Positions 6,513 to 63,780 of a stretch of 64,000 bases of DNA are shown piece after piece (position 1 is the first letter of the stretch; every line of letters starts with the position of its first letter). The stretch is from positions 1,488,001-1,552,000 of the forward strand of contig CM059432.1 of the NCBI GenBank assembly GCA_030390025.1, read 5' to 3'. Under the pieces are notes generated by a model. The model did no database searches, was not told the DNA's origin, and worked only from the letters and a program-made list of their open reading frames with translations. Origin of the DNA: Squalus acanthias. Lineage: Eukaryota. The position numbers and the translations under genes were made by a program.

Positions 6513-6853
6513 CACAACAACAACTTGCATTTACATAGCACCTTTAACGTAGTAAAACGTCCCAAGGCGCTACACAGGTGCGATTATCAAACAAAGTTTT
6601 GACACCGAGCCACACAAGGAGATATTCGGACAGGTGACCAAAAGCCTGGTCAAAGAGGTAGGTTTTAAGAAACGTCTTAAAAGGAAGAGAGAGGTGGAGA
6701 GGTTTAGGGAGGGAATTCCAGAGTTTTGGGCCCAGGCAACTGAAGGCACGGCCACCAATGGTAGAGCGAAGGAAATCGGGGACGCGCAAGAAGCTAGAAT
6801 TGGAGGAGCGCAGAGATCTCGGAGGGTTGTCGGGCTGGAGGAGGTTACAGAGA
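6513..6853 (-). mobile_element. L2-clade LINE 3' end
   Basis: GGRAFSCLGPKLWNSLP...KTYLF peptide and (TTG)n-type tail; many copies in the window. Confidence 0.85.
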
Positions 6854-6981
6854 TGGTTACATGGACTCAAACGCAGAAGAAAACAAAGTTTAGATTTAAT
6901 TACTTGCATCTATACAGTGCCCTTCAATATAAAAAGAAAGACTTGCACATAAATGTTTCAGCACCACACAGGGTAGATAAA

Positions 6982-7185
6982 TGTGAGAAGTCGCACAACA
7001 CCAGGTTATAGTCAACAGCTTTATTTGAAATCACAAGCTTTCGGAGCGGCTGCTCCTTCACTTCACCTGACGAAGGAGCAGCGCTCCGAACGCTTGTGAT
7101 TTCAAATAAAGCTGTTGGACTATAACCTGGTGTTGTGCGACTTCTCACATTTGTCCACCCCAGTCCAACACCGGCATCTCCGCAT
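6982..7185 (+). mobile_element. Penelope-like fold-back insertion with hammerhead-type motif
   Basis: About 80-bp inverted arms plus a 34-nt unpaired tail; TSD CAGGGTAGATAAA at 6969-6981 and 7186-7198. Confidence 0.75.
7063..7099 (+). ncRNA. Minimal type I hammerhead ribozyme motif (Penelope-associated; GAAC variant in this copy)
   Basis: TCAC-CTGACGA-A-GGAGC-AGC-GCTCC-GAA(C)-GC-TT-GTGA: stem I TCAC/GTGA, core CUGANGA, stem II GGAGC/GCTCC, palindromic stem III. The other arms read GAAAGCTT. Confidence 0.6.
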
Positions 7186-9639
7186 CAGGGTAGATAAAGG
7201 CAGACAACATTGCGGAGGTGAAAGTGTGCTCTTTGCTGATGAGATCAAGCGGTTTAAAGCTCAGCTGCAGATTGAATCGGAGTTTCTGGTTCACCAGTGA
7301 CTGGCTTTACACAGAGGGTGGTTAAAATATGAAAGATGGCCTGCGGAGACATGGGGGGTAATTCCAACACCTAAAAAACGGCTGGGTTTGGGTGGAAAGT
7401 AAAAATGTAAAAAAATTTCAAAGTGGAGTTGAGGCCAAGATCAGATCAGCCATGATCTTATTGAATGGCAGAGCAGGCTCGAGGGGCCAAATGGCCGACT
7501 CCTATTTCTTATGTTCTTATGAACCCAAGCCGCCTCGAACCCACCCACTTCCGGTTTTAACGGAAGCGGGACAAGGAGCGGGCAACCAATCCACTCTCAG
7601 GAGACCACGGGAAACCCAGCAGGTAAAAGGAGGCGAGAGGGCTGCATCCATAAGGCTAAGTGCCTTTACATCACTGCTTATGTGCCAAGAGGAGCAGGAG
7701 TGGTTCCTCCAGGCCCAACGAGCTTACCCTGTAAACTCCCCCCCTCCACCCGCGATCTGTCAGCTTCCCCGACCCCTCACCCGCCATCAGCCCTGACCCC
7801 CACAACAACCACGCTCTGCCCACCAACACCCCCCCCACCGACTCCCACTAAACGTAGCTGCTCCTTGGCCACGCCCTTTTTCGGAGCCTTCCCCACCCGA
7901 CAGGCAGCCGAGCCCGTCAATCAGGTTGACTTTCGGGTGAGGTACCTTGGGGGGAAAAAAAATCTCTGCGCCATTTGGGGAAACCCGCACTTACGGGTCT
8001 CCCGGCTTTAACTCCTCTCCCTCTTCCCACACCCACCCCCCTCGCCCCAGGAAATATCAGGGCCATAGCGTCAGCAAATTCCAGAGGGACCATGGTAAAT
8101 GCACTTGACAGAGGCAACTAAGAGGTATGAGAGCCATAGAAATATATGATGTTAATCAAACTTTGGCACCAGCCAAATGAAATTCAATGGTCTCTTCAGA
8201 TTCTATATACATTCCTGTGCTTCTAAAATATTTCAATTCAACACTTCATACAATATAGATGTCAGCTGTTTTTTTAAGTCAAGGCCTTAACTATTCCACA
8301 CTTCACTAATTTCGAATAGGATTATATTGAGCTTATAGATCTTTTACCTTAAAACCCTTTGATGTTAAACTACATTACACAATGCACGTCCAAACAAAAT
8401 TGTGCGCCTTGCCTTTTTTTTTTGCACACAATAGATTCTCTCACCCGTATCGTTGACATCTCAATACTCACGGTCAAGGTTTCATCCATAGGACTTGAAC
8501 GTACAGAATCGCCTGTAAACCTTCACAGGAGGTAGTTTGGTATCCCGGTAAGCGAACCGGTAAAATGAAAACCCGAAGGCTACAGCCAGACATTAGCTGT
8601 AAACGCTGTCTCCGGTACAAGCCAAGCATGTGCGACTGAAGCGCTTCAGAACCTTACTGCAGCTCAATGGAGGAAAAAAAAAGTGTGATGATAAATTCGC
8701 TGCATCTCATTTCGAATCACCAGCATACTGGCATCAAACAATCCGTCTTAGCATATCTTAGTCCCCGAGCCAACTTTTATCCTACCTCTGCCAAGCAAAC
8801 ACCAAACAACGGAGCTTCTGCGATTCTCCAACATTATGCTGTTTATCCCCACATCATGTTTCTACGCAAAATGTGCCCGAGGGCATAACTGGAAAATGCA
8901 AGCAGGTGCAGACAAGAACAGCCCACTTCAATTAGCTACTGGGTTAGAGCACAGAAACGAAACGGTGTGCAATTAGTAATGAAGCACCTTTTATTAAAAA
9001 AAAACACAAACAGCCAAACAGATTTGTCATCATACAAATTATAAAATCAGAAAGCTCCTTTTCGGCCAAGAGGATTTTATTTGAGAATGAGACTGCGGCA
9101 GTTGACCCGTAACCCTTCCACACACACACAACATAAAACTGGCAGCTGACTGGCAGCTGTTGTTGTAAAAAGAATTTAATGTGTCACAACTTTGGTAGCA
9201 TAACACAGCACGCTTAAAAAGGTTTCCTCAAACCCAAACGCATGAAATTACAGCACAGAAATAAGACTTGATCCATTACCTTATTTCGGATCAATTCCGT
9301 GCTAAAATGGTTCTCAAGGGCAACTAGGGATGGGCAATAAATGCCGGCCTTGCCAGCGACGGCCACATCCCATGAATTAATTTTTTAAAAAGCAAAAAAA
9401 AAATCATGTTTTTCTCATCAATTTAAAGGCAATTACAATTATTTTGATTTATAACGGTACAACATTAATAAAAACTCCGAAGATTCAATTTAGTTTGAGG
9501 ATCTTGCAAATTAACTTTTATTCAATATGATAATTTAAAAAAAAAAATTGTTCTCTGACCACATCGGCCAGACCGGGTAAGGGCAGCAGATTTCCTTCCC
9601 TAAAGGACATTAGTGAACCAGATGGGTTTTTACGACATA

Positions 9640-16118: not shown

Positions 16119-19100
16119 ACATAGAAACATAGAAAATAGGTACAGGAGTAGACCATTCGGTCCTTCGAGCCTGCACCGCCATTCAATGCGTTCATGGCTG
16201 AACATGCTACCTCAGTACCCCATTCCTGCTTTCTCGCCATACCCCTTGATCCCCCTAGTTGTGAGTGTTATATCTAACTCCCTTTTGAATATATTTAGCG
16301 AACTGGCCTCAACAACCTTCTGTGGAAGAGAATTCCATAGATTCACCACTCTCTGGGTGAAGAAGTTCCTCCTCAGCTCAGTCTTAAATGGCTTCCCCTT
16401 AATCCTTAGACTGTGACCCCTGGTTCTAGTTTTCCCTAACATTGGGAACATTCTGCCCGCATCTAATTTGTCTAAACCAGTCAGGATTTTAAATGTCTCT
16501 ATAAGATCCCCCCTCATTCTTCTGAACTCCAGAGGATACAAGTCCAGTTGACCCAATCTTTCTTGATATGTCAGTCCGGCCATCCCAGGAATCAATCTAG
16601 TGAACCTTCGCTGCACTCCCTCAATAGCAAGAATGTCCTTCCTTAAGTTAGGAGACCAAAACTGCGCACAATACTCCAGGTGTGGCCTCACCAAGGCCCT
16701 GTACAACTGTAGCATCACCTCCCTACTCCTGTACTCAAATCCCCTTGCTATGAAGGCCATCATTCCGTTTGCTTTCTTGACTGCCTGCTGCACTTGCATT
16801 CCCACCTTCAGTGACTGATGTACCATGACGCCCAGGTCTCGTTGCACCTCCCCTTTCCCTAATCTGCCACCATTCAGGTAATAGTCCGCCTCTCTATTTT
16901 TACCACCAAAGTGGATAACCTCACATTTATCCACATTGTACTTCATCTGCCATACATTTGCCCATTCACCCAACCTGTCCAAGTCACTCTGTAGCCTCCT
17001 AGCATCCTCCTCATTGTTCACACTGCCTCCCAATTTAGTGTCATCCGCAAATTTGGAGATATTACATTTAATCCCTTCGTCCAAATCATTAATATATAAT
17101 GTAAACAGCTGGGGTCCCAGCACCGAACCCTGCGGTACCCCGCTGGTCACTGCCTGCCATTCTGAAAAGTACCCATTTACTCCTACTCTTTGTTTCCTGT
17201 GTGCCAACCAGTTCTCAATCCACGTCAACACATTACCCCCAATCCCATGTGCTTTAACTTTGCTCACCAATCTCTTGTGTGGGACCTTGTCGAAGGCCTT
17301 CTGAAAGTCCAAATACACCACATCTACTGGTTCCCCCCTGTCCACCCTATTGGAAACATCCTCAAAAAATTCCAGAAGATTTGTCAAGCATGATTTCCCT
17401 TTCACAAATCCATGCTGACTTGGACCTATCATGTCGCCACTTTCCAAATGGTCTGTTATGACATCTTTAATAATTGCTTCCATCATTTTACCCACGACCG
17501 ATGTCAGGCTGACCGGTCTATAATTCCCTGCTTTCTCCCTCCCTCCTTTTTTAAAAAGAGGGGTTACATTGGCCACCCTCCACTCCATCGGAACTGATCC
17601 AGAGTCTAAGGAATGTTGGAAAATGATCGTCAATGCATCCACTATTTCCAAGGCCACCTCCTTAAGTACTCTGGGATGCAGACCATCAGGCCCCGGGGAT
17701 TTTTCAGCCTTCAGTCCCATCAATTTCCCCAATACCTTTTCCCGACTAATAAGGATTTCCCTCAGCTCCTCCCTCTTACCAGATCCTCTGACCCCTTTTA
17801 TTTCCGGCAGGTTGTGTGTGTCCTCCACAGTAAACACCGAACCAAAGTACTTGTTCAATTGATCTGCCATTTCCTTGTTCCCCATTACGACTTCCCCTGT
17901 TTCCGACTGCAGGGGACCTACGTTTGTTTTTACTAACCTCTTTCTTTTTACATATTTATAGAAGCTTTTGCAGTCCATTTTAATGTTCTCTGCAAGCTTC
18001 CTTTCATATTTTATTTTCCCTGCCCTAATCAAACCCTTCGTCCTCCTCTGCTGAGTTTTGAAGTTCTCCCAGTCCCCGGGTTTGCTGCTACTTCTGGCCA
18101 ATTTGTATGCAACTTCCTTGGTTTTAATACTATCCCTGATTTCCCTTGTTAGCCATGGTTGAGCCACCTTCCCTTTTTTATTTTTACGCCAGACCGGGAT
18201 GTACAATTGTTGTAGTTCATCCATGCGATCTCTAAATGTCTGCCATTGCCCTTCCACTGATAGCCCCTTAAATATCGCTTGCCAATTTAACCTCGCCAAT
18301 TCACGCCTCATACCATCAAAGTTGCCCTTATTTAAGTTCTGGACCATGGTCTCTGACTTAACTGTTTCCTTCTCCATCCTAATGTAGAACTCCACCATAC
18401 TATGGTCACTCTTCCCTAGGGGGCCTCGTACCACAAGATTGCTGATTAGTCCTTCCTCATTACACAACACCCAGTCCAGGATGGCCTCCCCTCGAGTTGG
18501 TTCCTCAACATATTGGTTTAGGAAACCATCCCTTAAACACTCCAGGAAATCCTCCTCCACCGTATTGCTTCCAGTTTGAGTAGCCCAATCTATATGCATA
18601 TTAAAGTCACCCATGATAACTGCCGTGCCTTTTTTGCACGCACCTCTGATTTCCTGTTTCATACCCTCCCCCACCTCACCACTGCTGTTTGGAGGTCTGT
18701 ACACAACTCCCACTAACGTTTTCTGCCCTTTGGTGTTCTGCAGCTCAACCCATATTGATTCCACATCCTCCAAGCTGATGTCCTTCCTAGCTATTGCATT
18801 AATCTCCTCTTTAACCAGCAATGCTACCCCACCCCCTTTTCCTTTTATTCTATCCTTTCTGAATGTTGAATACCCCTGGATGTTCAGTTCCCAGCCTTGA
18901 TTGTTCTGGAGCCACGTCTCTGTAATCCCAATCACATCGTATCCGTTAACATCTATTTGCACAGTCAATTCATCCACCTTATTACGGATACTCCTTGCAT
19001 TAAGACACAGAGCCTTTAGGCTTATTTTATTAACATCCTTTGTCCTTTTAGACTTATGATTTAGTATGGCCCTTTGTGTTTCTTGCCTTTGTTTACTCGG

Positions 19101-19585
19101 CCTTCCCCTATTGTTTCTCACCCTTCTAACATTTGTTTCTGACTGCATATTACTTCCCCCTGTTTCGCTACATAGGTTCCCCTTCCCCTGCCATATTAGT
19201 TTAAATCCTCCCGAACTGCTTTAGCAAATATTACCCCGAGGACATCGGTTCCAGTCCTGCCCAAGTGCAGACCGTCCCTTTTGTACAGGTCCCACTTCCC
19301 CCAGAACTGGTTCCAATGCCTCAGGAATTTGAATCCCTCCCTCCTGCACCACTGCTCAAGCCACGTATTCAATCTCACTATCCTGTTCTCTCTATTCTGA
19401 TTAGCTCGTGGCCCTGGTAGCAATCCAGAGATTACTACCTTAGAGGTCCTACTTTTTAATTTAGCTCCTAGCTCCCTAAATTCTGCTTGTAGGACCTCTT
19501 CCCGCTTTTTACCTATATCGTTGGTACCTACATGCACCAAGACAGCTGGTTGTTCACCCTCCCTCTTCAGAATGTTCTGCAGCCC
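16119..19585 (-). mobile_element. Young 5'-truncated CR1 (HER1-like) LINE with intact ORF2 and partial ORF1 esterase domain
   Basis: ORF2 as above; upstream ORF 19196-19540 (VHVGTNDIG...DGLHL) is the SGNH/GDSL esterase part of CR1 ORF1; 3' tail of TTTCTATG-type short repeats at about 16119. Confidence 0.92.
16212..19148 (-). CDS. CR1-clade LINE ORF2 (APE endonuclease + reverse transcriptase), intact
   Basis: 978-aa uninterrupted ORF with APE motifs (LNARSI, ITETWL, GDFN, SDH) and RT motifs ([35 protein letters not shown]). Confidence 0.95.
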   Translation of the reverse strand: MQSETNVRRVRNNRGRPSKQRQETQRAILNHKSKRTKDVNKISLKALCLNARSIRNKVDELTVQIDVNGYDVIGITETWLQNNQGWELNIQGYSTFRKDRIKGKGGGVALLVKEEINAIARKDISLEDVESIWVELQNTKGQKTLVGVVYRPPNSSGEVGEGMKQEIRGACKKGTAVIMGDFNMHIDWATQTGSNTVEEDFLECLRDGFLNQYVEEPTRGEAILDWVLCNEEGLISNLVVRGPLGKSDHSMVEFYIRMEKETVKSETMVQNLNKGNFDGMRRELARLNWQAIFKGLSVEGQWQTFRDRMDELQQLYIPVWRKNKKGKVAQPWLTREIRDSIKTKEVAYKLARSSSKPGDWENFKTQQRRTKGLIRAGKIKYERKLAENIKMDCKSFYKYVKRKRLVKTNVGPLQSETGEVVMGNKEMADQLNKYFGSVFTVEDTHNLPEIKGVRGSGKREELREILISREKVLGKLMGLKAEKSPGPDGLHPRVLKEVALEIVDALTIIFQHSLDSGSVPMEWRVANVTPLFKKGGREKAGNYRPVSLTSVVGKMMEAIIKDVITDHLESGDMIGPSQHGFVKGKSCLTNLLEFFEDVSNRVDRGEPVDVVYLDFQKAFDKVPHKRLVSKVKAHGIGGNVLTWIENWLAHRKQRVGVNGYFSEWQAVTSGVPQGSVLGPQLFTLYINDLDEGIKCNISKFADDTKLGGSVNNEEDARRLQSDLDRLGEWANVWQMKYNVDKCEVIHFGGKNREADYYLNGGRLGKGEVQRDLGVMVHQSLKVGMQVQQAVKKANGMMAFIARGFEYRSREVMLQLYRALVRPHLEYCAQFWSPNLRKDILAIEGVQRRFTRLIPGMAGLTYQERLGQLDLYPLEFRRMRGDLIETFKILTGLDKLDAGRMFPMLGKTRTRGHSLRIKGKPFKTELRRNFFTQRVVNLWNSLPQKVVEASSLNIFKRELDITLTTRGIKGYGEKAGMGY

Positions 19586-20084
19586 TATTTTGCCCTATTG
19601 GAAAGATTGAGATTTGAAGCCAAATCGTGCCCAACACAATGAATTAATAACTCAAAGCCTGAACCACTTTGCTACAGATTATTGCAATTCAGTGGTTGAA
19701 ATAATGCATGTACTTTATTCCCCAGATCAAATTTCAATATTCACAATCATCTCCCTGTAAATACAAGCTACTTTGCTTAACTGCGTACAGCACAACACAT
19801 TAAGGCCTAAAAATTCAACCACGCCCGGAAATGGGGGCGCACAGCACGCGCGCCTGTTAGCGTCGACTCAGGCAGCACGCAATATTCGTGCTACCTGCTG
19901 ATTATAACCTCTCAGGCCTGCTGCCAGCACTACCTGTGCTACTCATTGGCTGCACGCCGCTCAGCCTTGTGGGGGGGGGGGCGGGCTTGTTAACGGTGCG
20001 GTATTGCTCTAAAATAACTTCAGAAGACTGTTTGATAACATACTTAGTGCATAATTTGTCTAGAAATACTATTATTTCAACAGC

Positions 20085-20760
20085 AGCTTTTACGACCTCA
20101 GGACATCCCAAAGCGCTTTACAGCCAATGAAGTACTTTTTGAAGTGTGGTCACTGTTGCAATGTAGGAAACGTGGCAGCCAAATTGGGCACAGCAAGCTC
20201 CCACACACAGCAATGTGATAATGACCAGATAATCTGTTTTTGTGATGTTTATTGAGGGATAAATATTGGCCCCAGGACACCGGTGAGGACTCCCCTGCTC
20301 TTCTTCCAATGGTGCCATGGGATCTTTTACATCCACCTGAGGGGGCAGACAGGGCCTCGGTTTAAAGTCTCTTTCGAAAGACGGCACCGCCGACAGTGTG
20401 GCGCTCCCTCAGTACCGGCCCCCCCGACAGTACTGCCCCTCCAACAGTGCAGCACTCCCTCAGTACTGCCCCTCCTACAGTGCTGCCCTCCCTCAGTACT
20501 GACCCTCCGACAGTGCGGTGCGCCCTCAGTACTGCCCCTCCGACAGTGCAGCTCTCCCTCAGTACTGCCCCTCCGACAGTGCGGCGCTCCCGCAGTACTG
20601 TCCCTCCGACAGTGCGGCGCTCCCGCAGTACTGTCCCTCCGACAGTGCGGTGCTCCCTCAGCGCTGCACTGGAGTGTCAGCCTGGATTTGTGTGTTCAAG
20701 TCTCTGGAGTGGGACTTGAACCCATAACCTTCTGACTCAGAGGTGAGAGTGCTGCCCTCC
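20085..20760 (-). mobile_element. Deu-domain SINE with internal 33-bp tandem array
   Basis: tRNA-like head (GGTTCAAGTCCC B-box on the minus strand), Deu core, about 8 units of a 33-mer at about 20390-20670. Confidence 0.85.
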
Positions 20761-23705: not shown

Positions 23706-24194
23706 TTCCCACCACGGCAGCTGGAGGAATTTAAATTCAGTTAATTGAATATAAATTTGGAATTAAAAAGCTAGTATCAGTAAAATGGTGACGATGAAAC
23801 TACCAGATTGTTGGAAAAACCCAACTGGTTCACTAATGTCCTTCAGAGAAGGAAATCTGCCATCCTTACCCGGTCTCGCCTATATGTGACTCCAGACCCA
23901 CAGCAATGTAAGAACATAAGAAATAGGAGCAGGAGTCGGCCATTCGGCCCCTCGAGCCTGCTCCGCCATTCAATAAGATCATGGCTGATCTTCCACCTCT
24001 ACTCCACTTTCCTGCCCGATCCCCATATCCGTTGATTCCCTTAATATCCAAAAATCTATCGATCTCTGTCTTGAATATACTCAACGATTGAGCCTCCACA
24101 GCCCTCTGGGACAGAGAATTCCAAAGATTCACCACCCTCTGAGTGAAGAAATTTCTCCTCATCTCAGTCCTATATGGCTGACTCCTTATTCTGA

Positions 24195-24360
24195 TGCGGA
24201 GATGCCGGTGTTGGACTGGGGTGGACAAAAGTGAGAAGTCGCACAACACCAGGTTATAGTCTAACAGCTTTATTTGAAATCACAAGCTTTCGGAGCAGCG
24301 CTCCGAAAGCTTGTGATTTCAAATAAAGCTGTTGGACTATAACCTGGTGTTGTGCGACTT
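24195..24360 (-). mobile_element. Penelope-like fold-back insertion (copy 2) nested in CR1
   Basis: TSD CTCCTTATTCTGA at 24182-24194 and 24361-24373; palindrome centred on GGAGCAGCGCTCC. Confidence 0.78.
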
Positions 24361-24645
24361 CTCCTTATTCTGAGACTGTGACCCCTGGTTCTAGACTCTC
24401 CAGCCAGGGAAAATATCCTCCCTGCATCTACCCTGCCAAGCCCTGTAAGAATTTTGTATGTTTCAATGAGATCACCTCTCATTCTTCTCAACGCCAGAGA
24501 ATATAGGCCTAGTCTACTCAATCTCTCCTCATAGGACAATTCCCCCCATCCCAGGAATCAGTCTGGTGAACCTTCGTTGCACTCCCTCTATGGCAAGTAT
24601 ATCCTTCCTTAGGTAAGGAGACCAAAACTGTACACAATACTCCAG

Positions 24646-30511: not shown

Positions 30512-30711
30512 NNNNNNNNNNNNNNNNNNNNNNNNNNNNNNNNNNNNNNNNNNNNNNNNNNNNNNNNNNNNNNNNNNNNNNNNNNNNNNNNNNNNNNNNN
30601 NNNNNNNNNNNNNNNNNNNNNNNNNNNNNNNNNNNNNNNNNNNNNNNNNNNNNNNNNNNNNNNNNNNNNNNNNNNNNNNNNNNNNNNNNNNNNNNNNNNN
30701 NNNNNNNNNNN
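30512..30711. other. Assembly gap (200 N)
   Basis: Run of n characters. Confidence 1.
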
Positions 30712-31731
30712 CAAAACTGTACCCAATACTCCAGGTGTGGTCTCACCAGGGCCCTATATAATTGCAGTAAGACGTCTTTACTCTTATACTCAAATCCTCT
30801 TGTAATAAAGGCCAACGTACCATTTGCTTTCCTAATTGCTTGCTGTACCTGCATGTTAACTTTCAGTGACATAACCTTAAAATGAGAGCCAGGCCGTTCA
30901 GGGGTGATGTCAGGAAGCACTTCTTCACACAAAGGGTGGTGGAAATCTGGAACTCTCTCCCACAAAAAGCTGTTGAGGCTGAGGGGTCAATCGAAAATAT
31001 CAAAACTGAGATTGATCGATTTTTGTTGGGTAAGGGTATTAAGGGTTAGGGAACTAAGGCAAGTAAATGGAGTTAAGATACAGATCAGCCATGATCTAAT
31101 TGAATGGTGGAACAGGCTCAAGGGGCCGAATGGCCTCCTCCTGTTCCCTTTCAGTTTTCTCGCGTGGCTCCCTCATTGTCTCTTCTATAAATTTGATAAC
31201 AGCAATGCAATTTCATAAATCAATTACATAGAAGATAGGAGCAGGAGTAGGCCATTCGGCCCCTCGAGCCTGCTCCGCCATTCAATGCGATCATGGCTGA
31301 TCATCCAAATTCAGTACCCTGTCCCTGCTTTCTATATATCTGTATCTACATATATGCATATACACACACACACTGATGTATCCTATCCCACTGACCAACT
31401 GCATGGATGACATGCATATTTATTGTGAAGCACAATAGTACACCTGAGGAAACAGCAAAATAATGTACATCTGCCGCACGAAAAGGTATTTCTAACAAAC
31501 ATCTTGTTTGAAAGGTCCAAGATACTCTTCCTCTGTTCTTGCCCTCATATTGGGACTCTCCCAAATTTTCCTCTCCCATTGCAGACATAATGGTGAAATT
31601 GCCGACTGCAAATCAAGCAAATGTGCACCTCACAGAGAGTCTATGTTCTTCAGTTCTGGTTTGGTGCCGAGTTCTGGAGGCACCTCGGAATTAAATGACC
31701 TGGATATATTAAAGATTAGAACGATCCAAGT

Positions 31732-32871: not shown

Positions 32872-33830
32872 TCAGTGCTGCACTGTCGGAGGTGCCGTCT
32901 TTCGGATGAGACATTAAACCGAGGCCCCGTCTGCTCTCTCAGGTGGACGTAAAAGATCCCACGGCACTATTCTGAAGAAGAGCAGGGGGAGTTATCCCCC
33001 GGTGTCCTGGCCAATATTTATCCCTCAACCAACATCATTAAAACAGATTATCTGGTCATTATCACATTGCTGTTTGTGGGAGCTTGTTGTGCGCAAATTG
33101 GCTGCCGCGTTTCCCACATTACAACAGTGACTACACTTCAAAAAGTATAGTGTCAGTTGTGGCTCAGTGGGTCGCACACTCGCCTCGGAGTCAGAAGGTT
33201 GTGGGTTCAAGTCCCACTCCAGGGACTTGAGCACATAAAGTTAGGCTGACAATCCAGTGCAGTACTGAGCCTCCGACAATGCGGCGCTCCCTCAGTACTG
33301 CCCCTCCGACAGTGCAGCGCTCCCTCAGTACTGACCCTCCGACAGTGCGGCGCTCCCTCAGTACTGCCCCTCCGACAGTGCAGCGCTCCCTCAGTACTGC
33401 CCCTCCGACAGTGCGGCGCTCCCTCAGTACTGCCCCTCCGACAGTGCAGCGCTCCCTCAGTACTGCCCCTCCGACAGTGCGGCGCTCCCTCAGTACTGCC
33501 CCTCCGACAGTGCAGCGCTCCCTCAGTACTGCCCCTCTGACAGTGCAGCGCTCCCTCAGTACTGCCCCTCCGACAGTGCAGCGCTCCCTCAGTACTGACC
33601 CTCCGGCAGTGCAACGCTCCCTCAGTACTGCCGCTCCGACAGTGCAGCGCTCCCTCAGTACTGCCCCTCTGACAGTGCAGCACTCCCTCAGTACTGCCCC
33701 TCCGACAGTGCAGGGCTCCCTCAGTACTGCCCCTCCGATAGTGCGGCGCTCCCTCAGTACTGCCCCTCAGACAGTGCACCGTTCCCCGAGTACGGCCCCA
33801 GGAGTGTCAGCCTAGATTATGTGCTCAAGT
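32872..33830. mobile_element. Deu-SINE cluster: + fragment, + head, inverted 33-bp array and inverted partial head
   Basis: About 16 units of CAGTACTGCCCCTCCGACAGTGCRGCGCTCCCT at about 33270-33800. Confidence 0.85.
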
Positions 33831-34369: not shown

Positions 34370-34920
34370 TAAGAACAAGAACTTATATAGCACCTTTAAC
34401 ATAGTAAAACATCCCAAGGCACTGCACAGGAGCGATTATCAGACAAATTTTGACACCGAGCCACATAAGGAGATATTAGGACAGGTGACCAAAAGCTTGG
34501 TCAAAGAGGTCGGTTTTAAGGAGCATCTTAAAGGAGGAGAGAGAGGCGGAGAGGTTTAGGGAGGGAATTCCAGAGTTTAGGGCCCAGGCAGCTGAAGGCA
34601 CGGCCGCCAATGGTGGAGCGATGGGAATCGGGGATGCTCAAGAGGCCAGAATTGGAGGAGCGCAGAAATCTCGGAGGGTTGGAGGAGGTTACAGAGATCT
34701 CGGGGGGTTGTGGGGCTGGAGGAGGTTACAGAGATCTCGGAGGGTTGTAGGGCTGGAGGAGGTTACAGAGATCTCGGAGGGTTGTAGGGCTGGAGGAGGT
34801 TACAGAGATCTTGGAGGGTTGTAGGGCTGGAGGAGGTTACAGAGATCGGGAGGGTTGTAGGGCTGGAGGAGGTTACAGAGATAGGGAGGTTTGTAGGGCT
34901 GGAGGAGGTTACAGAGATAG
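34370..34920 (-). mobile_element. L2 3' end with internal ~37-bp tandem expansion
   Basis: Unit GAGATCTCGGAGGGTTGTAGGGCTGGAGGAGGTTACA repeated about 7 times at about 34665-34920. Confidence 0.85.
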
Positions 34921-44805: not shown

Positions 44806-46057
44806 ATTACATTTGGTTCCCTCGTCCAAATCATTGATATATATTGTGAATAGCTGGGGCCCAAGCACTGATCCCTGCGGTAGCCCACTAGTCACCGCCT
44901 GCCACCCCGAAAAAAAACCATTTATTCCTACTCTGTTTCCTGTCCGTTAACCAATTTTCAATCCATGCCAGTATATTACCCCCAATCCCATGTGCTTTAA
45001 TTTTGCACACTAACCTCTTATGTGGGACTTTATCAAAGGCCTTTTGAAATTCCAAATCCACATCTACTGGTTCTCCCTTATCTATTCTACCAGTTACATC
45101 CTCAAAAAACTCCAGTAGGTTTGTCAAACACGATTTCCCTTTCATAAATCCATGTTGACTTTGTCTAATCCCGTTGATAGTTTCTAAGTGTCCTGTTATC
45201 ACATCCTTTATAATAGACTCTAGCATTTTCCCTACTACTGATGTCTGTAGTTCCCTGTTTTCTCTCTCCCTCCTTTTTTAAATAGTGGGGTTACATTTGC
45301 CAACCTCCAATCTGCAGGAACTGTTCCATAATCTATAGAATTTTGGAAGATGACAACCAATGCATCCACTATTTCCATTGCTGCCTCTTTAGTACTCTGG
45401 GATGCAGATCATCAGGCCCTGGGGATTTATCGGCTTTCAGTCCCATTAATTTCTCCAGCACTATTTTTTTTTACCAATACTAATTTCCTTTAATTCCTCC
45501 TTCTCACTAGACCCTTGGTTCCTTAGCATTTCTGGGAAGTTATTTGTGTCCTCTACCGTGAAGACAGAACCAAAGTATTTGTTTAATTGCTCTGACATTT
45601 CCTTGTTCCCCATTATAAATTCTCCCGTTTCTGACTGTAAGGGACCTACATTTGTCTTCACTAATCTTTTTCTTTTTACATACTTGTAGAAGCTTTTACA
45701 GTCCGCTTTTATGTTCCCTGCAAGTTTACTCTCATACTCTATTTTTCCTCTTTTAATCAATCTCTTGGTCCTTTTTTGCTGAATTCTAAACTGCTCCCAA
45801 TCCTCAGGCTTGCTACTTTTTCTGGCAAGTTTATCTGACTCCTCTTTGGATCTAATACTATCCTTAATTTCTTTTGTTAGCCATGGTTGGGCCGCTTTTC
45901 CTTTTGTGTTTTTGCACCAGAAAGGAATGTATAACTGTTGCAATTCATGCATTCGTTCCTTAAATGTTAGCACTCCTTCTGTGCTGTATGATTCTAATTT
46001 TTAAAAAAACTCGGGATTTGCGAACAAAAGGAAATATACCAATCTACTAAAAAGTCA

Positions 46058-46213
46058 TGATGCGGAGATGCCGGTGTTGGACTGGGGTGGACAAAAATGA
46101 GAAGTCGCACAACACCAGGTTATAGTCCAACAGTTTTATTTGAAATCACGAAAGCTTGGTGATTTCAAATAAAACTGTTGGACTATAACCTGGTGTTGTG
46201 CGACTTCTCATTT
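46058..46213 (-). mobile_element. Penelope-like fold-back insertion (copy 3)
   Basis: TSD TACTAAAAAGTCA at 46045-46057 and 46214-46226; about 55-bp inverted arms centred on GAAAGCTT. Confidence 0.78.
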
Positions 46214-46274
46214 TACTAAAAAGTCAAGTCAACCTCGTCGTCGTTTATGATAAAGTTAATCAGATGGTGCTCAC

Positions 46275-46556: not shown

Positions 46557-47935
46557 GTGTCAGCCGTGGCTCAGTGGGCAGCACCCTCGCCTCCGACTCA
46601 GAAGGTCGTGGGTTCAAACCCCGCTCCAGAGACTTCAGCACAAAAATATAGGCTGACACTCCAGTGCAGTACTGAGGGAGCGCCACACTGTCAGAGGGGC
46701 AGCACTGAGGAAGAGCCGCACTGTCGGAGGGGCAGTACTGAGGAAGAGCCGCACTGTCGGAGGGGCAGTACTGAGGGAGCGCCGCACTGTCAGAGGGGCA
46801 GCACTGAGGAAGAGCCGCACTGTCGGAGGGGCAGTACTGAGGAAGAGCCGCACTGTCGGAGGGGCAGTACTGAGGGAGCGCCGCACTGTCGGAGGGGCAG
46901 TACTGAGGGAGCGCCGCACTGTCGGAGGGGCAGCACTGAGGGGGCGCCGCACTGTCGGAGGGGCAGCACTGAGGGAGCGCTGCACTGTCGGAGGGGCGGT
47001 ACTGAGGGGGCGCCGCACTGTCGGAGAGGCAGTACTGAGGGAGCGCCGCACTGTCGGAGGGGCAGTACTGAGGGAGCGCTGCACTGTCGGAGGGGGCAGT
47101 ACTGAGGGAGCATTGCACTGTCGGAGAGGCAGTACTGAGGGAGCGCTGCACTGTCGGAGGGGCGGTACTGAGGGAGCGCCGCACTGTCGGAGGGGCAGAA
47201 CTGAGGGAGCGCCGCACTGTCGGAGGGGCAGAACTGAGGGAGCGCCGCACTGTCGGAGGGGCAGTACTGAGGGAGGGCCGCACTGTCGGAGGGACAGTAC
47301 TGAGGGAGCATTGCACTGTCGGAGAGGCAGTACTGAGGGAGCGCTGCACTGTCGGAGGGGCGGTACTGAGGGAGCGCCGCACTGTCGGAGGGGCAGAACT
47401 GAGGGAGCGCCGCACTGTCGGAGGGGCAGAACTGAGGGAGCGCCGCACTGTCGGAGGGGCAGTACTGAGGGAGCGTTGCACTGTCGGAGTGGAGGGAGCG
47501 TTGCACTGTCGGAGGGGAAGTACTGAGGGAGCGCCGCACTATCGGAGGGGCGGTACTGAGGGAGCGCCGCACTGTCGGAGGGGAAGTACTGAGGGAGCGC
47601 CGCACTGTCGGAGGGGCGTCTTTCGGATGGGACGTTAAACCAAGGCCCCGTCTGCCCTCTCAGGTGGACATAAAGGATCCCATGGCCAGTATTTTGAAGA
47701 GCAGGGGAGTTCTCCACAGTGTCCTGGCCAATATTTATTCCTCAACCAAGTTCACTAAAATACAGATGATCTGGTCATTATCATGTTGCTGTTGGTGGGA
47801 GCTTGCTGTGCGCAAATTGGCCACTGCATTTCCCACATTACAACAGTTCAAAAAGTACTTCACTGACTACAAAACGCTTTGGGACGTCCCGAGGTGGTGA
47901 AAGGCGCTGGAGAAATGCAAGTTCTTTCTTTCTGC
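46557..47935 (+). mobile_element. Deu-domain SINE with a ~950-bp internal 33-bp tandem array
   Basis: tRNA-like head from 46557, about 29 units GCACTGTCGGAGGGGCAGTACTGAGGGAGCGCC at about 46665-47615, then Deu core and tail. Confidence 0.88.
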
Positions 47936-63357: not shown

Positions 63358-63780
63358 GAGAACAACTTGCATTTATACAGCGCCTTTAACGTAGTAAAAC
63401 GTCCCAAGACACTTCACAGGAGCGATTATCAAACACAATTTGACACCGAGCCACATAAGGAGATATTAGGGCAGGTGACCAAAAGCTTGGTCAAAGAGGT
63501 CGGTTTTAAGGAGCGTCTTAAAAGGAAGAGAGAGAGGCGGAGAGGTTTAGGGAGGGAATTCCAGAGCTTAGGGCCCAGGCAGCTGAAGGCACGGCCACCA
63601 ATGGTGGAGCAATTAAAATCGAGGGATGCGCAAGAGGCTGGAATTGGAGGAGCGCAGAGATCTCGGAGGGTTGTAGGGCTGGAGGAGGTTACAGAGATAG
63701 GGAGGGTTGTAGGGCTGGAGGAGGTTACAGAGATCTCGGAGGGTTGTAGGGCTGGAGGAGGTTACAGAGATAGGGAGGGG
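63358..63780 (-). mobile_element. L2 3' end with ~37-bp unit repeated about 3 times
   Basis: Same tandem unit as 34665-34920. Confidence 0.82.

Follow-up and report, generated by a model that had tools for sequence, protein, structure and literature searches.

An insert with inverted arms and a minimal hammerhead motif in Squalus acanthias, very probably a truncated end piece of a Penelope-like element

The window, the whole stretch of 64,000 nucleotides that was analysed, contains at 6969–7198 an insert with two inverted arms, the right one of which includes the parts of a small hammerhead ribozyme. The question raised by this locus is what kind of element left the insert and whether the ribozyme took part in shaping it. 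Judged from its anatomy and its relatives, the insert is very probably a dead-on-arrival, 5′-truncated pLTR insertion of an endonuclease-bearing Penelope-like element (PLE); with less confidence, it would be twin-primed, with the ribozyme as a passenger. The surrounding DNA is repeat-rich and of vertebrate type, with LINE fragments dominant. A near-complete LINE (16212–19594, minus strand), which we take to be CR1-like, has an uninterrupted 1002-residue APE-endonuclease/RT frame (RVT_1, Exo_endo_phos) with a GDSL-esterase-type frame before it. A 33-bp GC-rich minisatellite forms three dispersed arrays (20428–20661, 33260–33799, and 46666–47617; 7, 16, and 29 units), the flanks of which are related repeats. 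Tandem expansions of 36/37 bp lie at 34675–34918 and 63655–63779 inside an abundant LINE-derived repeat, with a single unit near 6815–6855, and an assembly gap of 200 N (about 30553–30752) adjoins a purine-rich low-complexity tract.

The earlier note had described an insert of about 205 bp between 13-bp direct repeats, with inverted arms of about 80 bp and AATAAA in each arm, and this description was borne out. The insert was composed of 204 bp enclosed by exact 13-bp direct repeats, and its features were as follows:

6969–6981, no strand: left 13-bp target-site duplication (TSD)
6982–7059, minus strand: inverted tail-less arm, an antisense copy of 7072–7149 with helix II and GAAA and lacking the CUGA core
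7058–7187, plus strand: sense tail-bearing arm, the 3′ part of the presumed pLTR; contig loose ends lie before 7058 and behind 7187
7063–7099, plus strand: minimal type I hammerhead motif, with predicted cleavage between 7095 and 7096 and C at 7091
7105–7110, plus strand: AATAAA within an AU-rich stretch 3′ of helix I, with its mirror image at 7020–7025 (minus strand)
7152–7187, plus strand: unpaired tail, found on just one of the arms; the family has a fixed 3′ end here, at 7187
7186–7198, no strand: right 13-bp duplication, its first 2 nt common to the element end

The inverted arm (78 nt) and the sense arm (130 nt) paired over 6982–7059 and 7072–7149/7152, leaving an unpaired centre of 12 nt (7060–7071), and at the centre junction 2 nt belonged to both arms. 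The arms differed at three positions: the left arm had one deletion and one insertion, each of 1 nt, and the right arm had the C at 7091. An unpaired tail was present as claimed, but its length was 35–38 nt, set by the assignment of the microhomology, and not the 34 nt (7152–7185) given before.

Two further copies were found in the window by BLAST, both with the same tail end and exact 13-bp duplications:

24182–24373, minus strand: copy 2, with duplications at 24182–24194 and 24361–24373 and arms that meet in helix II
46045–46226, minus strand: copy 3, with duplications at 46045–46057 and 46214–46226

The TSD was therefore exactly 13 bp in all three copies, whereas a 13-bp repeat at both ends occurred in 158 of 20,000 random stretches. 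The host of copy 2 was a LINE 3′ fragment, and four empty paralogues in the window held the target once; thus, the duplication of copy 2 is a true TSD. Empty paralogues of the sites of copies 1 and 3 were not found in the window. All three copies were shorter than 250 bp, lacked an ORF, and carried a tail of 35–44 nt at one end only. They had one 3′ end but three different inner ends, so that the 5′ truncation is variable and the 3′ end is fixed. The turn point was located just upstream of the core in copy 1, in helix II in copy 2, and around the predicted cleavage site in copy 3, where the tail-bearing arm began at that site and the inverted arm reached about 9 nt deeper into the ribozyme. 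CUGANGA was kept in copy 1 only, and two of the three copies lacked the core.

In the motif at 7063–7099, the elements of a minimal type I hammerhead were all present and in the right order, as had been claimed for the right arm, with C at position 15.1. Helix I (7063–7066/7096–7099) consisted of 4 bp, within the 3–5 bp of PLE motifs, and closed both ends. The core CUGACGA (7067–7073) was followed by an extra A (7074), and helix II (7075–7079/7083–7087) consisted of 5 bp with a 3-nt loop. The CUGANGA core, the extra nucleotide after A9, and the closing pair G10.1–C11.1 were thus all located within 7067–7087. Residues GAA (7088–7090), C7091 at position 15.1, G-C-U (7092–7094), and U17 (7095) completed the motif. 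The combination of GAAA, palindromic 15.2/16.2, and UH was found in the family majority but not in the sense arm of copy 1, owing to C7091. The earlier statement that both other copies read GAAA was correct, but CUGANGA and the 5′ strand of helix I were absent from both.

The hammerhead searches proposed earlier gave a divided result. Over the whole 64 kb, a minimal-hammerhead descriptor relaxed at 15.1 matched one site, 7067, and any match was obtained in 2 of 100 dinucleotide shuffles, whereas the strict descriptor, which requires A15.1, matched no site in the window because position 7091 is C. Rfam gave no match, hammerhead included, at the gathering score over the whole 64-kb window, and no hammerhead match at E ≤ 10 over 6900–7300. 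The four Rfam matches at E ≤ 10 (three miRNA-hairpin models and one sRNA) were below gathering and were rejected as generic hairpin matches. Helices I and II were present in the predicted lowest-energy fold, and 6 of 200 shuffles folded equally well.

The minimal hammerhead of exactly this layout was defined in PLE pLTRs (PMC4209133; Cervera and De la Pena 2014), where single copies numbering thousands in a genome were described, as were opposite-strand pairs, and where monomers showed no cleavage and dimers weak cleavage. The present motif shared with the metazoan PLE motifs the 4-bp helix I, CUGANGA with the extra nucleotide, G10.1–C11.1, GAAA, the palindromic 15.2/16.2, the absence of loop 3, UH, and the AU-rich 3′ flank. 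In Fig. S3 of that paper, the Petromyzon (lamprey) Poseidon hammerhead shares helix I with the present motif, the Chrysemys (turtle) motif shares the GAAA-GCUU run with it, and cartilaginous fish are absent from the 56 motifs. The 5-bp helix II with a 3-nt loop and, in copy 1, the C at 15.1 were the differences. This part-by-part match to the published consensus, together with GAAA in the family majority, supports the claim of a Penelope-type minimal hammerhead.

The family was followed in contigs of four public sequencing runs (three organisms; four of the 21 runs listed), which were placed on 7056–7200. The numbers of contigs placed were 12,872, 10,177, 2,029, and 22,939, so that the repeat family of the insert is very abundant and present in high copy number. 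A family consensus without GAAA had been named as grounds against the hammerhead, and the opposite was observed: A at 7091 accounted for 99.1–99.9% of depth in all four runs. Therefore, copy 1 is a mutant, and its hammerhead is probably inactive owing to the C at 15.1. The commonest variant inside the motif was U17C, an allowed letter (16%, 28%, 2%, and 0.2% across the four runs). The other motif variants of at least 3% were G7098A, which reached 5%, and CpG-type changes at positions 7087 and 7088, which reached 12%. No variant among those listed fell in 7063–7086, which is weak evidence because variant contigs are clipped there (loose ends before 7083). The stems hardly varied and no compensatory changes were found among the listed variants, some variants being hidden by clipped alignments. 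The majority differences between organisms, none in the ribozyme and 3–4 in the downstream arm, were too weak to count as a sign that the ribozyme is the better conserved part.

Among the 24 loose-end rows listed, of 449 in all, a sharp cluster of loose ends was located behind 7187 (177, 149, 23, and 328 contigs), and a broad one behind 7144–7157. In the same 24 rows, three of the runs had contigs, 16, 11, and 3 in number, that ran on past 7058 on the upstream side with a shared sequence; therefore, the parent RNA is longer than the insert. The depth had no step at 7096, and no pile-up of 5′ ends was seen there among these rows, a finding without weight for or against cleavage, as contigs cannot show RNA ends. 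The majority letters after 7187 began with TG in all four runs, with an overall agreement of only 0.36–0.41. TG at this position would give an ATG at 7187–7189, in frame with a stop-free stretch that runs through the sense arm from 7100, and this ATG may be the start codon of the parent or may reflect a target preference.

The three copies appear to be independent truncations of a longer RNA and not repeats of one fixed fold-back unit, because they have three turn points, two of the three lack the core, and contigs continue upstream of 7058. The earlier view of a non-coding mobile family thus has less support than the hammerhead itself. The claimed insertion style, with inverted pLTR pieces, matched the layout of published PLE insertions, that is, a truncated pLTR, an inverted pLTR, a tail, and a duplication. 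Craig et al. (10.1101/2021.04.23.441226) described the PLE insertion unit as an inverted 5′-truncated pLTR with a one-sided 30–40-bp tail and a short TSD. The inverted 5′-truncated pLTR with a one-sided tail of 30–40 bp likewise appears in Arkhipova et al. (PMC3846280), in Goubert et al. (PMC8969392), and in Schostak et al. (PMC2377424). The head-to-head pLTRs, the tail at one end, and the short TSD are those of canonical EN+ PLEs (Penelope/Poseidon, Neptune, Nematis; Adineta Pen2a_Av). Unlike in these elements, there was no ORF between the repeats, and the TSD was 13 bp (3/3) as opposed to 8–10 bp in the Adineta examples.

The assignment to PLEs draws on these non-coding hallmarks. A scan with RT and GIY-YIG motif patterns gave no match in the 570 window peptides of at least 50 residues; 14 of the 570 matched a non-specific FL..C pattern only. 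Protein searches with the arm frame from 7100 returned two candidates, none at E ≤ 1, and a second search returned no matches. Among 10 chosen window ORFs, the only Pfam matches were a LINE protein of the APE-RT type and an ORF of the GDSL type. An ORF that encodes both a telomerase-like RT and a GIY-YIG endonuclease and adjoins the pLTR was found neither in the window nor by the peptide and DNA searches. When collections of metagenome, prokaryote, and viral sequence were scanned with patterns, 4, 4, 25, 0, and 21 loci were returned, and all 54 were treated as chance because the longest alignment to the arm was only 38 nt. No publication on this particular repeat family was found by the literature searches; Repbase and Dfam, outside their scope, may hold it. 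The insert is most likely an ordinary truncated PLE end piece and not a new self-propagating element.

A biochemical counterpart is PAc, the Poseidon PLE of Anolis carolinensis, whose protein nicks both strands, extends them, and begins reverse transcription at two sites bracketing the tail (Frangieh et al. 2024, PMC11167929). Its hammerhead needs protein and is dispensable for insertion in vitro, according to the same paper. The present family resembled PAc in having the hammerhead in the pLTR and two 3′-end clusters bracketing the tail. The two loose-end clusters fit the two start sites of the anole PLE in vitro, and both-strand extension would explain the two arms. PAc was primed without target homology in vitro, whereas microhomology was present at most junctions here, and the ORF of PAc starts inside the hammerhead, whereas no ORF was seen here.

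The insert may have been assembled in the following way. The RT/GIY-YIG protein would nick both target strands 13 nt apart. One target 3′ end would prime reverse transcription at the tail end (7187), and the other would prime 35–44 nt further in (7143–7152), on sense RNA from the same source. Both cDNAs would stop after 65–130 nt, in or beside the ribozyme, and would then be joined head-to-head through 1–5 nt of microhomology, giving two inverted arms with the tail on one of them. The ribozyme would be a passenger from the parent pLTR, in which its cleavage would require a dimer or the help of a protein; that of copy 1 is probably dead and has no tandem partner. Twin priming is known from L1, and the head-to-head joining proposed here resembles it, with the difference that both arms copy the same segment. 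Therefore, two RNA copies or a tandem pLTR would be needed.

The outer junctions bear on the priming step. Microhomology was present at five of the six outer junctions, with 12 nt over the six (P about 1e-4 to 7e-4), and the outer ends of the inverted arms clustered 35–44 nt from the tail end. The 3′ end of the left duplication of copy 1 can pair with the sense RNA at 7150–7160 in 10 of 11 positions, with one T·G wobble; the actual priming register of copy 3 was not the best-pairing one. The 3′-end clusters, the microhomology, and the pairing of copy 1 suggest that both target ends were primed on sense RNA.

The inner junctions bear on how the arms were joined. It is possible, though unlikely, that the PLE origin is the same and the palindrome arose by self-priming, either of the first cDNA, which would fold back on reaching the ribozyme and copy itself, or of an antisense RNA. 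Copy 1 fits this directly, since its centre belongs to the tail-bearing arm with 2 nt of microhomology. Copy 2 turns within the helix II hairpin, subfamily variants are common to both arms within a copy, and head-to-head junctions of Adineta Penelopes have been explained by self-priming on antisense RNA (Arkhipova et al., PMC3846280). In copies 2 and 3, however, the tail-less arm reaches deeper into the ribozyme than the tail-bearing arm and the centre belongs to the tail-less arm, which argues against fold-back because a tail-primed fold-back cannot directly give a deeper tail-less arm. The centre could have been flipped by recombination between the arms or by an assembly error at the palindrome. 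Furthermore, the target microhomology and the clustering at the outer ends of the inverted arms are as for priming sites. Within the PLE reading, two separately primed cDNAs joined head-to-head fit the junctions better than one folding cDNA, a preference of modest strength drawn from three copies only. The fold-back shape claimed earlier is thus confirmed, but the fold-back mechanism is probably incorrect.

In addition, the arms of the three copies have six inner ends, and every one of these was located at 7058–7096, in or beside the hammerhead. It is a tentative suggestion that the ribozyme sets the stop of reverse transcription: a dimeric PLE enzyme would use its two start sites to prime on each target strand, and both cDNAs would stall either at the folded ribozyme or at a 5′ end left by cleavage. 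One of the six arm ends was located at the predicted cleavage site, which is within chance by a rough estimate (about 0.3).

A second alternative, akin to the earlier note's non-coding family and in our view improbable, is that a PLE enzyme copied in trans a short master RNA without coding function, either a retrozyme derived from a pLTR or a SINE-like unit, possibly as a tandem. Li et al. (bioRxiv 10.64898/2026.07.22.740005) trace tandem retrozymes to pLTRs and report such non-autonomous retrozymes in vertebrates including one cartilaginous fish, and their tables may list the present family. The small size and lack of an ORF in all three window copies would agree with such a template. Single contigs in two runs also join the tail end back to about 7060–7062, and these joints are possibly short head-to-tail pLTR tandems able to form a dimeric ribozyme. 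The present family is like the animal non-LTR retrozymes in being non-coding and pLTR-related and in having a type I hammerhead. Non-LTR retrozymes are head-to-tail tandems with a hammerhead in each unit, whereas the present copies are single head-to-head inserts, two of three without the core. No tandem of the unit was found in the window, which speaks against an assignment of these copies to non-LTR retrozymes. The variable unit and the shared sequence upstream of 7058 also argue against a short master RNA. A MITE-like DNA transposon with TIRs or a miRNA-like hairpin with an incidental hammerhead match is very improbable: the long inverted arms and the TSD would suit the former and the miRNA models do score on the hairpin, though far below gathering scores, but the arms are not terminal (one-sided tail), their lengths and ends vary between copies, which largely refutes fixed-end terminal inverted repeats, and the full hammerhead topology appeared in only 2 of 100 shuffles.

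With the truncated, twin-primed PLE end piece as the preferred reading, the single locus is an ordinary one, as animal genomes are known to contain end fragments of PLEs with minimal hammerheads by the thousand. It is of value as one sample of an abundant family with near-identical copies and uniform 13-bp duplications. In the literature searched, neither an in vivo hammerhead record at junctions nor twin priming was found described for PLEs. Because the family is abundant, near-identical, and uniform in its duplications, a genome-wide tally of junctions could decide between twin priming and self-priming and could show whether the hammerhead cleaves in vivo. If the ribozyme does set the stop of reverse transcription under twin priming, the many junctions in this genome would record, in vivo, both the action of PLE hammerheads and twin priming.
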